NCBI GenBank assembly: GCA_035261165.1
Contig: DATFUE010000165.1
Coordinates: 1 to 28,684, forward strand
Reading direction: 5' to 3'
Origin: Myxococcota bacterium
Lineage (GTDB): Bacteria; Myxococcota_A; UBA9160; SZUA-336
DNA: 28,684 bases
Numbering within the stretch: the stretch's first letter is position 1; each line of letters begins with the position of its first letter. Below are positions 2 through 27,204 of the stretch, one piece after another. Made by a program: the position numbers and the translations under genes. Under the pieces are notes generated by a model, which saw nothing but the letters and a program-made list of their open reading frames with translations, ran no database searches and was not told where the DNA came from.

Positions 2-1225
2 GAAGTTCGCCGCGATCCGTACCCGCACTACCGCGAGCTGCGGCGCAAGGCGCCTGTCCGGCTGATCGAGAGCACGGGCTTCTACGCGGTCGCCTGTCAG
101 CGCGACGTGCTCGAAGTGCTGCGCAATCCCGAGGTCTTCTCCTCGCGCGCGATGCGCTTCCTGCGCTCGAACGGGCGCGCACCGGCCTCGCCGCTCGGCC
201 AGGGTGCTGAGGTTCCAGCGGAAGCAATCGCTCAGCTCGTCGCCTCACTGCCCTTCCCTGTCCAGGAGCTCGCCGGCGCGCGGTCTGTCGTGTTCGCCGA
301 TCCGCCCGTGCACGATGCGCTGCGCTCGATCGTCAATCGCGGCTTCACGCCGCGGCGGATCGCCGAGCTCGAGCCGCGCATCCGCGAGATCGCGCGAGCC
401 TGCATCGCCGGCGTGCGCCCGAAGGGCGAGCTCGATCTGGTTCAGGATCTCGCGATCCCCCTGCCAGTTACCGTGATTTCCGAGCTGCTCGGCGTCGATC
501 CGGAGCGGCGCGCCGACTTCAAGCGCTGGTCGGACGCGATCGTGGCCAACTCTCTCGGTGCGGTCACTCGAACGCCGATCTCGTCCGCGGTTCCGGAGCT
601 GTTCCGCTACCTGGCCGAGGTCATCGACCAGCGCCGGAAGGCCCCGCGCGAGGATCTCATCAGCACGCTGATTCGCGCCGAAGACGGCGAGGGGCTGAAG
701 CCGGCCGAGGTCGTGATCTTCACGCTGCTGCTGCTCGTCGCGGGGAACGAGACCACCACGAACCTGCTCGGCAACGCGCTCCTCGCGCTCACCGAGCACC
801 CCGCCGAGCTCGCGCGGGTGCAGCGCGAGCCCGCCCTCGTGCCGGCGCTCGTCGAGGAGACACTGCGCTACGACTCACCCGCCCAGGCCGTCTTCCGCGA
901 GACGACCCGCGACACGGAGCTCGCCGGGGTCGCGATTCCCCGCGGCTCGATCGTCGTCCCGCTGCTCGCCTCGGCGAATCGCCACGAGAGCGCGTTCCCG
1001 GACGCCGAGCGCTTCGACCTGACTCGCGAGCGCACGAGTCACGTCGCGTTCGGCTTCGGCGTGCACTTCTGTCTGGGCGCTGCCCTCGCGCGTCTCGAGG
1101 CGCGGGTCGCCCTCGAAGAGCTCTTCGAGCTGCGCGGCCTCGCGCGCAAGCCCGACGCCGAGCCCGAGCGGCTCGACTCCTTCGTCCTGCGCGGCCTCCG
1201 GAGCCTGCCGCTGGCGTTTCAGTGA
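2..1225 (+). CDS. Cytochrome P450 (bacterial type), 5'-truncated by the window edge
   Basis: The frame is open from base 2 (EVRRDPYPHYRELRRKAPV...), upstream of the ORF-track start at 107. It has the I-helix AGNETT, K-helix ETLR and heme-ligand FGFGVHFCLG motifs. Confidence 0.95.
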   Translation, partial: EVRRDPYPHYRELRRKAPVRLIESTGFYAVACQRDVLEVLRNPEVFSSRAMRFLRSNGRAPASPLGQGAEVPAEAIAQLVASLPFPVQELAGARSVVFADPPVHDALRSIVNRGFTPRRIAELEPRIREIARACIAGVRPKGELDLVQDLAIPLPVTVISELLGVDPERRADFKRWSDAIVANSLGAVTRTPISSAVPELFRYLAEVIDQRRKAPREDLISTLIRAEDGEGLKPAEVVIFTLLLLVAGNETTTNLLGNALLALTEHPAELARVQREPALVPALVEETLRYDSPAQAVFRETTRDTELAGVAIPRGSIVVPLLASANRHESAFPDAERFDLTRERTSHVAFGFGVHFCLGAALARLEARVALEELFELRGLARKPDAEPERLDSFVLRGLRSLPLAFQ

Positions 1226-1272
1226 GACGCAAGCCGCGCAGCGGCGCGCAGCGAGGCGGAGCCGAGCGTAAG

Positions 1273-3105
1273 TCAGGCGGCGCTGCGCTCCTGAACGGCG
1301 TACTGGAGCTGATAGAGCCGCCAGTAGAGCCCGCGCTGCGTGAGCAGCTGGTCGTGAGTCCCGGACTCGCGCAATTCGCCGTGGTGCAGCACGAGGATCC
1401 GGTCGACGTCCTGGATCGTCGACAGGCGGTGAGCGACGACCATCGAGGTCTTGTTCTTCATCAGCGCGTGCAGGGCGTCCTGGATCAGCGCTTCGGTGCC
1501 GGTGTCGACGCTGGAAGTCGCCTCGTCGAGCAACAGGATCTCCGGCCGCTGTGCGAGCGCGCGGGCGAACGACAGCAGCTGGCGCTCGCCGACCGAGAAG
1601 TTCCCGCCGCGCTCGTGAACCGGCTGGCGGTAGCCGAGCGGCAGGCGCGCGACGAACTGCTCGAGGTGCGCCGTGCGCATCGCCGACTCGACCTCCGCCT
1701 GCGAGACATCGGCGCGGCCGAGGCTCACGTTGTAGGCGAGATCTCCGGTGAACAAGAACACGTCCTGCAGCACGAAGGCGATGTGCCGGCGCAGCTCCGC
1801 GCGCGGGATGTCGCGCACGTCGACGCCGTCGATCCGGATGCGCCCCTCTTGCGGCTCGTACATGCGCGCGAGCAGCTTCAGCACGGTCGTCTTGCCCGCG
1901 CCCGTGTGACCCACCAGGGCGACCCGCTGACCCGGCGACACCGAGAACGACAGGTTCTTCAGCACAGGTTGAGCCTCGTAGGCGAAGCTCACGTTCTCGA
2001 AGCTGATTTCGCCGCGGATCGCCCGCGGCCCGCCGCGCGTCGCGCGCTCCTCGGGCTCGGTCGGAACGTCGAGCAGCTGGAACACGCGCTCGAGGCTCGC
2101 CATCGACGACTGCATGACCGAGTACTTCGCCGAGAGGTCCTGCAGCGGGCGGTAGAAGCGCCGCATCCAGTCGACGAACAGCAGCAAGTCACCCATCGCG
2201 ACCACGTGGTAGCCCATCAGCCGCGCGCCGTACCAGAGGATGAACGCCGTGGTCAGGTTGCCCGCCAGGCCGATCGTCGCGGTGAGCAGCGACTCGTAGT
2301 TGATCGACGTGAACCAGGCGTCGCGGTGCTCGCCGTTGGTGCGCATGAACTCGGCGAAATTGCGCTCCTCGCGCGCGAACAGCTGGACCACGCGCATGCC
2401 CGTGATCGTCTCCTGGAGGTGCGCGTTGATGCGCGCGATCTTCTGGCGCACCACGCGAAACGCGTCGCGCACCTTCCAGCGGAACACGATCGCGGCGCCG
2501 GCCATGACCGGGACCACGGCCATCGCGCAGGCCGCGAGCCGCCAGTTCAACCAGAAGAGCACGGCCGCGAACGCCAGCATCATCACCAGGTCGGCGAGCA
2601 GCGCGACCAGGCCCGCCGAGAACATCTCCGACGCCGACTCGATGTCGTTGCCCAGGCGAGTCACAAGGCGCCCGACGGGGTAGCGGTCGAAGAAGCGCAG
2701 CGGCAGGCGCTGCACGTGCGTGAAGAGCGAGCGCCGCAGCTCGAGCATCGCGCGCTGGCCCATCACCGCCATCGAGACGCCGCGCGCGAACTCGACCGCC
2801 GCGCCCAGCGTAGCGATGATCAGGAACATCAGCGCGAGCCAGGCGATCGCCGGGAATCCGGCGGGCGGCTCCGCGAGCACGCGGAACACCGGCACGCCGG
2901 GAAAGCGATCCACGCCGGCCAGGTGATTCAGCGCGGCGCCGAACAGCGAGCCGGGAATCATCTCGAGCACGACGCGCACGGGAATCAGCGCGATCGCCGC
3001 CGCGACGAAGCGCCAGTGCGGGCGCAGGTACGGCCACAGCCGGCGCATCAGGGTCGAGTCATAGACCTTGCCGAGCAGCTCTTCGTCGTGGAAGCCGGGA
3101 GTCAC
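1273..3105 (-). CDS. ABC exporter half-transporter (TMD+NBD), second subunit of a heterodimeric BmrCD/TM287-288-type pair
   Basis: 610 aa with a multi-TM N-half, Walker A GHTGAGKT, Walker B ILLLDE, H-loop AHRL and a non-canonical signature FSVGE. Its GTG start overlaps the TGA of the upstream ABC gene. Confidence 0.93.
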   Translation of the reverse strand: MTPGFHDEELLGKVYDSTLMRRLWPYLRPHWRFVAAAIALIPVRVVLEMIPGSLFGAALNHLAGVDRFPGVPVFRVLAEPPAGFPAIAWLALMFLIIATLGAAVEFARGVSMAVMGQRAMLELRRSLFTHVQRLPLRFFDRYPVGRLVTRLGNDIESASEMFSAGLVALLADLVMMLAFAAVLFWLNWRLAACAMAVVPVMAGAAIVFRWKVRDAFRVVRQKIARINAHLQETITGMRVVQLFAREERNFAEFMRTNGEHRDAWFTSINYESLLTATIGLAGNLTTAFILWYGARLMGYHVVAMGDLLLFVDWMRRFYRPLQDLSAKYSVMQSSMASLERVFQLLDVPTEPEERATRGGPRAIRGEISFENVSFAYEAQPVLKNLSFSVSPGQRVALVGHTGAGKTTVLKLLARMYEPQEGRIRIDGVDVRDIPRAELRRHIAFVLQDVFLFTGDLAYNVSLGRADVSQAEVESAMRTAHLEQFVARLPLGYRQPVHERGGNFSVGERQLLSFARALAQRPEILLLDEATSSVDTGTEALIQDALHALMKNKTSMVVAHRLSTIQDVDRILVLHHGELRESGTHDQLLTQRGLYWRLYQLQYAVQERSAA

Positions 3106-26067: not shown

Positions 26068-26118
26068 GCACCCTCCTCGGGGGTCCGGGCGGAGCTTAGC
26101 CCGCGGCCCGGGGGGCGG

Positions 26119-27204
26119 CTAGCGGAGCTGCGCGAGCACCGCGGGCTTGAGGATCTGCTCGTCGCCCTCGACGCGAAAGACGTCGTCGAGCCCGAGTGAC
26201 GCCCACGGGATCACTTCGCCCTCGGGGCCCTCGACCACGAATCCGGCGTCGCGAATCATCCGGTACGTGTCGGTCGCGCCCTTCCCCTTCGTCGTGAGAT
26301 AGCCCTCGACGAACAGTGAGTTGGCGGGCCAGAGCGCGAGCGCCTCGAGCGAGCGCAGGTGTCCCTCGCGTCCGGCCGCGATGCGCACCTCGGCGCGCGG
26401 GTTCGCGAGCCGCATCATGGCGAGCACGCGCAGCGCGCGCTCGGGTGAGAGCGAGCCGTCGGACTGCAGCGGGTTGCCCTCGATCGGCAAGAGGAAGTTC
26501 ACCGGGATCGAAGGCACCTCGAGCTCGCGCAGCGCGAGCGCGACCTCGACCAGATCCGCGTCCGTCTCGCCCATGCCCGCGATCAAGCCGCTGCACTGCT
26601 CTAGCCCCGCGGCGCGCGCGGCACGCAAGGTCGCGATCCGGTCGGCGTAGGTGTGCGTCGTGCAGATCTCGGGGTAGTGACGCTCGCTGGTGTTCAGGTT
26701 GTGATTCAACCGGTCGACCCCGGCCTGCTTGAGAAGCCGCGCCTTGGCTTCGTCGAGCAGGCCGACCGACACACAGATGCGTACGGGCACCTCGGCGCGG
26801 ATCGCGCGCACCGCATCGCACAGGAACTCCACCTGCCGGTCCGTCGGCCCGCGGCCGCTCGCCACCATGCAGTAGCGGAACGCACCCGCCGCATACGCGC
26901 GCTTCGCCTCGGCGATCAGCTCCTGCTTCGGCTTCCACGGGTACGGCCGCAGCGGCGCGTCCGTGATCGCCGACTGGGAGCAGTAGCCGCAGTCCTCCGG
27001 GCAGCGCGCGTTCTGCGCGTTGTTCAATATGTGCACGCGCACGCGATTGCCGAAGCCGCGCTCGCGCGCGACGCGCGCCTCGTGGAGGAGCGGCAGCAGC
27101 GGCAGCTCGGGGCCGAGCACGTGAAGGAGCGCGGCGCCGTCGAGCGCCGGACCGTCGAGACTGCGTTTGGCGAGCTCCATTCGAGCGCGGAGCATATCAG
27201 ACAT
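26119..27204 (-). CDS. bioB: Biotin synthase (radical SAM)
   Basis: CPEDCGYC radical-SAM motif and auxiliary 2Fe-2S ligands in RYCMV, RICVS, EQCSG and EVRIAAGRE. NHNLNTS and PVNFL are present. The start is likely ATG 27204, with 27195 and 27180 as alternatives. Confidence 0.93.
   Translation of the reverse strand: MSDMLRARMELAKRSLDGPALDGAALLHVLGPELPLLPLLHEARVARERGFGNRVRVHILNNAQNARCPEDCGYCSQSAITDAPLRPYPWKPKQELIAEAKRAYAAGAFRYCMVASGRGPTDRQVEFLCDAVRAIRAEVPVRICVSVGLLDEAKARLLKQAGVDRLNHNLNTSERHYPEICTTHTYADRIATLRAARAAGLEQCSGLIAGMGETDADLVEVALALRELEVPSIPVNFLLPIEGNPLQSDGSLSPERALRVLAMMRLANPRAEVRIAAGREGHLRSLEALALWPANSLFVEGYLTTKGKGATDTYRMIRDAGFVVEGPEGEVIPWASLGLDDVFRVEGDEQILKPAVLAQLR

Follow-up and report, generated by a model that had tools for sequence, protein, structure and literature searches.

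Introduction

The uptake sequences of the Pasteurellaceae (uptake signal sequence, USS) and of the Neisseriaceae (DNA uptake sequence, DUS) are words of 9-12 bp with a sharp core that are enriched hundreds of fold, and very short patch (VSP) repair by Dcm and Vsr in enterobacteria drives T to C with effects of about 1.2-1.5-fold. The highly iterated palindrome HIP1 of cyanobacteria (GCGATCGC) is hyper-abundant, found in all frames and conserved between genomes, which was read as selection, and its enrichment amounts to 15-300-fold (PMC5861425). HIP variants co-occur with methyltransferases (PMC4390886), a correlation exists between the abundance of HIP1 and type IV secretion proteins (PMC13756078), and recent work has tied HIP1 to the efficiency of transformation (bioRxiv 10.1101/2024.09.10.611283). 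Here, we describe a family of short words in a 28,684-bp stretch of DNA from an uncultured soil Myxococcota bacterium (called the window for simplicity; 70.9% GC). The window is contig DATFUE010000165.1 (C165) of genome G000 (3.63 Mb in 685 contigs, 75% complete). Three heptamer pairs are enriched in it, GTGACTC/GAGTCAC, GTCACTC/GAGTGAC and GTGAGTC/GACTCAC, to which GTCAGTC/GACTGAC is the fourth combination.

The closest analogue of this word is HIP1 together with the alternate highly iterated palindromes of cyanobacteria. As with HIP1, a short word exceeds codon-aware expectation, lies in genes in all frames as well as between genes and is lacking in related lineages; its sites are also conserved beyond control sites. 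Unlike HIP1, it is another word in another phylum and at another base composition, namely a word that bears A/T in a genome of 70% GC, its best form is a palindrome but heptamers that are not palindromic belong to the favoured set too, neither a matching clade-specific methyltransferase nor VirB4 was found, and its origin is much younger, within one genus. With USS and DUS the word shares a density of about one copy per kb, equal use of both orientations, placement in coding DNA in all frames at little protein cost and its occurrence in related species, and the higher gain and slower loss of copies reported below agree with a molecular-drive model. It differs from them in being fuzzy and 7-9 bp long with no sharp 9-12 bp form (an 11-mer has only 22 copies), in being a weak self-marker (the core pentamers are in absolute terms no commoner than in lower-GC DNA) and in that ComEC is not distinctive, being present in motif-poor relatives as well. 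As in VSP repair, a sequence-specific process would skew the word and its one-mismatch neighbours genome-wide; here, however, the drive goes from G/C to A/T at several positions, and Vsr and C5 methyltransferases were not found in the clade. The word thus appears to work like a genome word of the HIP or USS type, by analogy and with no claim that it belongs to either.

Results

A heptamer family enriched in the window

The sequence-only reading of the window had listed 52 exact heptamer matches (23+16+13) where about 3 per pair were expected at ~70% GC. Our recount returned identical numbers, with GTGACTC/GAGTCAC present 10+13 times, GTCACTC/GAGTGAC 6+10 times and GTGAGTC/GACTCAC 8+5 times, and the zero-order expectation at 70.9% GC is ~2.8 per heptamer pair. 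The fourth combination, GACTGAC, has no exact match in the window. The motif had also been described as embedded in coding sequence, and indeed 49 of the 52 matches lie inside predicted genes with all frames represented; the one-mismatch variants pointed out at 1019, 8381, 9011 and 16948 are real and contain the core pentamers TGACT/TGAGT. The enrichment persisted in the codon-preserving shuffles that had been proposed as a check: 9.5 matches were expected (standard deviation 2.5) under synonymous permutation within genes and 7.8 (standard deviation 2.6) under resampling by genome codon usage, which corresponds to a z of ~17, and the highest count in 300 shuffles of the window was 17-19. The enrichment of the word in the window is real and confirmed.

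Enrichment and shape of the word across the genome

Genes of G000 were called with a purpose-built log-odds finder based on codon usage and GC content at third codon positions (GC3), which yielded 3703 genes (92% coding, GC3 0.916). The commonest pair (GAGTCAC) occurs 2301 times in the genome compared to 360 copies expected from a zero-order model. By this measure the three pairs come only 16th, 69th and 64th among the 2240 pairs of the same composition, and the zero-order test is not specific because many codon-driven heptamers of G000 reach 10-14-fold. A comparison with arbitrary heptamers of the same composition had been named as a possible refutation of the motif; the zero-order ratio did not set the word apart in it, whereas the codon-aware ranking did, with GAGTCAC, GACTCAC and GAGTGAC at ranks 1, 2 and 4 of the 2240 pairs. 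Under within-gene permutation of synonymous codons the three pairs were enriched 8.0-, 7.0- and 4.7-fold and the fourth combination 0.9-fold, GAGTCAC scored highest among all heptamers (z = 112), and 8-mers exceeded the codon-aware expectation 10-17-fold. In G000, CTCAG/CTGAG reaches only 0.46 of its codon-aware expectation, and heptamers containing CTCAG/CTGAG only 0.27-0.45. This is possibly restriction-site avoidance, and the depletion may be the reason why GACTGAC is not enriched.

The core of the word is the pentamer A-S-T-S-A (S, G or C), in the order AGTCA > AGTGA > ACTCA, the working unit is the heptamer G-ASTSA-C and the best form is GAGT-S-ACTC. The palindromic 9-mer GAGTSACTC has 601 copies genome-wide; the commonest units are nonetheless non-palindromic heptamers, and GACTCAC lies outside the palindrome. 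An 11-mer of which the three heptamers were taken to be mere windows, a companion claim of the sequence-only reading, had to be abandoned as a master word, with just 22 copies in the genome. Maximal-order Markov models placed the information in 5- to 7-mers (ratios of ~1.0 at 7-8 nt for family words), and base frequencies in the flanks beyond ~9 nt are at background level with no further signal. The pentamers GANTC and GTNAC by themselves are raised 1.4-1.7-fold, compared to 3-6-fold for AGTCA. As a separate observation in G000, distances between core pentamers alternate between even and odd (116, 56, 106, 58, 85 and 49 pairs at 6-11 nt) up to ~12 nt, and A/T tends to fall on every second base in short tracts genome-wide.

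A property of double-stranded DNA

Fold-enrichment was alike in all permitted (non-stop) frames, 7.5-10-fold for GAGTCAC and 7.7-8.1-fold for GTGACTC, and the same in both orientations relative to transcription, which excludes codon-pair, peptide and mRNA explanations. The density of the heptamers is 1.4 per kb within genes and 1.5 per kb outside them, and the core pentamers in intergenic DNA reach 6.6 per kb in G000 and 2.4 per kb in a motif-poor relative, a 2.8-fold difference. The word exists at the level of double-stranded DNA rather than at that of codons, peptides or mRNA.

GAGTCAC was counted 1138 times on the forward and 1163 times on the reverse strand of the genome, the per-contig forward/reverse overdispersion was 1.05-1.2, and correlations with GC skew ranged from -0.18 to 0.16. 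Unlike Chi, the FtsK-orienting polar sequences (KOPS) and architecture-imparting sequences (AIMS), the word hence shows no strand skew following replication direction, as had been judged from the window, and polar signals were rejected on this ground with contigs that are short (~5 kb on average). The sites are spread evenly, with a Poisson-like variance-to-mean ratio (VMR) of 0.90-0.93 in 3-kb windows, a shorter scale than the 10-90 kb at which highly iterated palindromes are periodic, and no large G000 contig free of the word was found.

Origin of the word within one genus

GAGTCAC density has a bimodal distribution in the genus (12 genomes): it is 630-890 copies per Mb in G000, G001, G002, G006 and G011, which we call motif-rich, and 85-115 in six motif-poor species, and G009 is intermediate with 277. 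No further motif-rich genome was present among 225 genomes (90 genera) of the class, and a literature search for the word itself returned nothing relevant. The ranking of words is identical in all motif-rich genomes, with no sign of motif dialects. A relA/spoT tree, methyltransferase identities and a tree of 3161 codons of window genes all unite the motif-rich genomes in a single clade, and the motif-poor G005 branches just outside it. The word has a single and recent origin inside this one genus of uncultured soil Myxococcota, where the clade that acquired it is represented by five sampled species.

A 400-kb sample of the motif-poor G007 has 70.3% GC and a GC3 of 0.912, and compared to it AGTCA is 5.9-fold, AGTGA and ACTCA 4.1-fold and the heptamers 4.4-10.7-fold commoner in G000. 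Weak excesses of GAGTCAC (3.1-fold, 32 copies) and of GAATCAC, which contains GANTC (3.7-fold), were seen in the sample; it showed no exotic word of its own, only generic codon-boundary words being raised. The codons AGT, TCA, ACT, ACA, TGT and TAT are used 2-4 times more in G000 than in the motif-poor relative, and GGA, CGA and CTT less. Since GC3 is equal in motif-rich and motif-poor genomes (0.916 vs 0.912), A/T third positions have been redistributed, not added. The same pair of genomes differs in other words as well, with GATC, GGATC, TCCGGA and CGGAAT at 0.5-0.75 times and GCGC at 1.2 times the level of G007 (L031-L050) in G000.

Near-identical sequence is present in soil metagenomes. 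Positions 9546-15875 of the window are reproduced, with 0-4 differences and none of them in motif sites, by independent Logan contigs of two soil metagenome runs that belong to two studies; one of the runs may be the source sample. The motif-rich metagenome-assembled genomes (MAGs) come from several projects, and species of both kinds, motif-rich and motif-poor, are found among the MEGAHIT assemblies. Summed contig depth in soil metagenomes was in the hundreds at 9336-9669 and 16350-16683 and ~10 elsewhere; these stretches are conserved ABC-ATPase and relA/spoT segments common to many organisms.

The intermediate species G009 was sister to the motif-rich G011 with full support in the tree of the window locus, which is one locus; at the methyltransferase locus it was not placed beside G011. 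Its motif density is about one third of the motif-rich level (L001, L006, L119-L125) and uniform (VMR 1.25), so that a mosaic of motif-rich and motif-poor segments was rejected. In the 8 kb alignable over ten genomes, 14 of the 16 pentamer sites of G009 are common to motif-rich genomes and 2 are private, compared to 10 private sites in G011. The residue of sites expected on the G009 branch at the generic loss rate is close to that observed, though the numbers are small. As a lead only, G009 may show the word decaying once the drive had been lost.

Gain and loss of copies

Alignments of the window and of relA/spoT revealed near-matches such as GCGTCAC, GAGCGAC and GACGCAC in motif-poor relatives and outgroups at places where, in the motif-rich clade, one silent third-position change from G/C to A/T completes the word. 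The completing change may fall at any of the three A/T positions and may be a transition or a transversion; all such changes are silent and in-frame stops are never created. At fourfold degenerate sites the completing base is specific to its context: in GTC[x]CTC, A occupies 48% of sites in G000 (4% in G007) and T 4%; in GAC[x]CAC, T occupies 45% (8% in G007) and A 8%; and at [x] before GTCAC and after G, A occupies 66% (19% in G007). The base that would complete the fourth combination reaches only 3-5%. Occupancy rises from ~7% in pentamer-only contexts to 57% in heptamer contexts and 90-91% in contexts of the 9-mer palindrome.

Rates were determined from 248 kb of G006 (89% identical) aligned to G000, using fourfold sites with identical 6-nt flanks and a two-state model. 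Heptamer-completing contexts (N=144) gave an equilibrium of 0.57 with a gain uT of 0.26 and a loss vT of 0.20, whereas generic A or T (N=12,659) gave an equilibrium of 0.03 with uT of ~0.035 and vT of ~1.1. Gain of completing bases is thus ~7.5-fold higher and their loss ~5.5-fold lower (0.18-fold), and 0.84 of the completing bases were retained between G000 and G006 compared to 0.36 of generic A/T. In the four other motif-rich genomes, 0.81, 0.66, 0.63 and 0.55 of the A/T third positions within window motifs were conserved, versus 0.45, 0.27, 0.19 and 0.24 of the other A/T third positions in the window; against motif-poor genomes, motif A/T third positions of the window showed no excess conservation. 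An existing copy persists about as well as does the G/C state that is preferred elsewhere. A plain G/C-to-A/T hotspot is insufficient to account for this because it would leave the loss rate unchanged.

Search for a reader gene

The screen covered six gene families in all 12 genomes of the genus; G000 is only 75% complete, and the four other motif-rich genomes are 90-96% complete. Matches above the cut-off were lacking in all motif-rich genomes for C5 (PF00145), Dam-type (PF02086) and Eco57I-type (PF07669) methyltransferases, for Vsr (PF03852) and for VirB4, and N6_Mtase (PF02384) gave one weak match there (G006, E 9e-9). The sole strong match was to PF01555 (N6_N4), a putative beta-class adenine methyltransferase with a DPPF motif that is distantly like CcrM and M.RsrI (L103:1429-2307, on contig C367 of G000) and is conserved as an ortholog throughout the 12 genomes. 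In its central region motif-rich and motif-poor species hardly differ, and an altered target-recognition region was not seen in this comparison. A second putative methyltransferase of ~390 aa with an SPPY motif (L179:700-2106 in G006) has matches across the genus that are weak in G007 and G003. All 11 relatives, motif-rich and motif-poor alike, have ComEC. Orphan methyltransferases had been suggested as a place to look, and among the families searched none is specific to the motif-rich clade; neither a methyltransferase nor Vsr nor VirB4 is co-distributed with the trait over the 12 genomes.

Sites and genes of the window

GAGTCAC stands on the plus strand at 1036-1042 (in a P450 gene, with the rare Ser codon AGT), 2658-2664 (GCGTCAC/GCGTGAC in motif-poor relatives), 3099-3105 (GCGTCAC in the motif-poor G003), 4685-4691, 8124-8130, 9442-9448, 10622-10628, 11943-11949, 15311-15317 (in relA/spoT), 18808-18814 (at a gene boundary) and 24410-24416. 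On the minus strand it is found at 8876-8882 (in frame GTG ACT C, with the rare Thr codon ACT), 9374-9380 (within the Q-loop codons of an ABC transporter), 14863-14869, 15275-15281 (in relA/spoT), 21413-21419, 22614-22620 and 22653-22659. Plus-strand copies of GACTCAC are located at 872-878 (in the P450 gene, with the rare Ser codon TCA), 10730-10736, 10922-10928 and 25001-25007, and minus-strand copies at 1354-1360, 4042-4048, 4378-4384, 9977-9983, 13857-13863 and 16790-16796 (in relA/spoT). GAGTGAC occupies 3630-3636, 12712-12718, 14014-14020, 21835-21841, 25400-25406 and 26194-26200 on the plus strand and 563-569 (GTCACTC on the plus strand), 11108-11114, 14121-14127, 15259-15265 (in relA/spoT) and 24264-24270 on the minus strand. 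Several copies are joined: GACTCAC and then GAGTGAC abut at 8484-8497 (plus strand), two heptamers overlap in GTGAGTCAC at 11609-11617 outside predicted coding sequence, the 9-bp palindrome GAGTGACTC occurs at 12505-12513, 13572-13580 (common to G001 and G002) and 18335-18343, and three heptamers overlap in the 11-mer GTGAGTCACTC at 14591-14601.

The gene content of positions 2-21952 is ordinary and comprises a cytochrome P450, three MsbA-like ABC exporters, an aspartyl-protease-domain protein, relA/spoT (14953-17091, minus strand), glycosyltransferases including a heptosyltransferase, and an NAD-dependent epimerase.

Discussion

The motif-rich clade shows a raised gain and a lowered loss at word-completing sites, and we read this combination as a fixation bias. 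New copies form where a near-match, with its remaining A/T positions already dictated by the encoded protein, acquires a single silent G/C-to-A/T change. Under a fixation bias, word-completing alleles would be favoured by selection or by biased conversion. A sequence-specific factor would read the word, and the palindromic optimum suggests that this factor may be dimeric. The likeliest settings would be DNA uptake or recombination, as for USS and DUS and, according to recent proposals, HIP1, or else the organisation of the chromosome. The word is maintained at the DNA level, and we give a probability of about 0.55 to a fixation bias that stems from a putative sequence-specific factor. The sequence-only reading had proposed a lineage-specific motif written into genes at the DNA level, and this part stands; of its three options, an uptake sequence, a nucleoid-protein site and a methylation- or repair-linked motif, the last has been weakened.

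Several observations weigh against a fixation bias exerted by a reader. The enrichment of 5-12-fold is modest next to the 15-300-fold of HIP1 and is far weaker than that of USS as well. The word is fuzzy, in that GAGACAC, GAATCAC and other GA-N-W-N-AC words (W, A or T) are also raised 3-5-fold, which is readable as a context effect, and GACTCAC is not part of the palindrome. The rates rest on crude purpose-built gene calls, one genome pair and assumed stationarity, and at the observed odds ratio of ~43 pure fixation bias predicts a gain of ~3.8-fold and a loss of ~0.09-fold, so that the ~7.5-fold gain is higher, and the ~0.18-fold loss less reduced, than predicted. Since gain rises more than predicted, a mutational component is possible. 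Finally, the screen yielded no reader gene, methyltransferases, Vsr and VirB4 not being clade-specific and ComEC being present in motif-poor relatives too.

Some of these observations would be expected if the mutation or repair spectrum had changed with no reader involved, the words being the passive footprint of an altered polymerase, glycosylase or lesion bypass that makes G/C-to-A/T changes likelier, and the reverse less likely, two bases from an existing A/T. Such a change would fit the broad family of alternating words with W at every second position in place of one sharp word, the even/odd alternation of pair distances up to ~12 nt, a gain above the fixation-bias prediction and the outcome of the gene-family screen. 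Yet loss is also cut ~5-fold and motif sites are conserved between species, the completing base is A and not T, or T and not A, depending on context, and completion proceeds at three positions through transitions and transversions up to 90% occupancy in the palindromic 9-mer, a pattern that a single lesion or polymerase mechanism does not naturally yield; we regard this explanation as unlikely, though as the main rival. A methylation-linked motif as in Elhai's model for HIP appears improbable to us. In this case the word, or its GANTC or GTNAC part, would be a methyltransferase target, and sites would be made and kept by methyl-directed short-patch repair or by shielding of methylated A:T from the GC-ward drive. 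The overlap of the heptamers with GASTC and GTSAC, the two putative methyltransferases (beta-class DPPF and SPPY-motif) conserved in the genus, the weak GAGTCAC and GAATCAC excess in the 400 kb of a motif-poor species and the co-occurrence of HIP variants with matching methyltransferases (PMC4390886) all point this way, but no methyltransferase of five families is confined to the motif-rich clade, Vsr was not found, the beta-class enzyme is nearly identical in its central region whether or not a species is rich in the motif, and GANTC and GTNAC alone lag far behind AGTCA.

The remaining alternatives carry little weight. A codon or translation effect, either codon-pair bias or the gain of a tRNA favouring AGT, TCA and ACT, would explain why these codons and ACA, TGT and TAT are used 2-4-fold above the motif-poor relative; it is ruled out by the frame and strand symmetry, with all frames equal, including those that place A/T at the third position of GGA and CGA (codons less used overall), and with intergenic DNA enriched too, and we consider it very improbable. 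We judge an artefact of assembly, binning or base-calling to be just as improbable. All genomes are MAGs and one close motif-poor relative is apparently a long-read assembly (3 contigs), which could raise such a concern; however, the motif-rich genomes stem from several independent projects, short-read MEGAHIT assemblies comprise both kinds, the changes are silent with no in-frame stops, the long-read motif-poor genome matches outgroup states at these sites and the Logan contigs of two studies reproduce the window sequence. Least credible of all is a polar chromosome signal such as Chi, KOPS or another architecture-imparting sequence: a length of 7-8 nt and the abundance of the word are within the range of such signals, but forward and reverse counts are equal genome-wide, overdispersion is slight, GC skew shows no correlation and the optimum is palindromic.

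Returning to a fixation bias exerted by a reader, one might go further and suppose a new kind of sequence-specific drive that operates without a cognate methyltransferase, pushes from G/C to A/T against GC pressure, was switched on once in the genus and was maybe switched off in one member, G009, which the window-locus tree nests in the motif-rich clade and which has a low uniform density and few private copies. We put this forward tentatively, as an idea more likely to be wrong than right.

The origin and upkeep of hyper-abundant words, through selection, biased repair or uptake bias, have been debated for decades, mostly on old, phylum-wide cases. The present case is young and comprises five species with the word, sister species without it and one intermediate. 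Because the signal is young, GC3 is shared and genes are largely syntenic, rates of gain and loss are directly measurable, and a presence/absence comparison of about a dozen genomes offers a way to look for the causal gene. The ~10,000 extra pentamer copies shift codon usage, with AGT, TCA and ACT raised 2-4-fold independently of translation, which matters for the interpretation of codon bias. If a drive is indeed at work, the genus would allow the appearance and the decay of a HIP/USS-like word to be dated, and would narrow the search for the presence or absence of the gene responsible to a few genomes.

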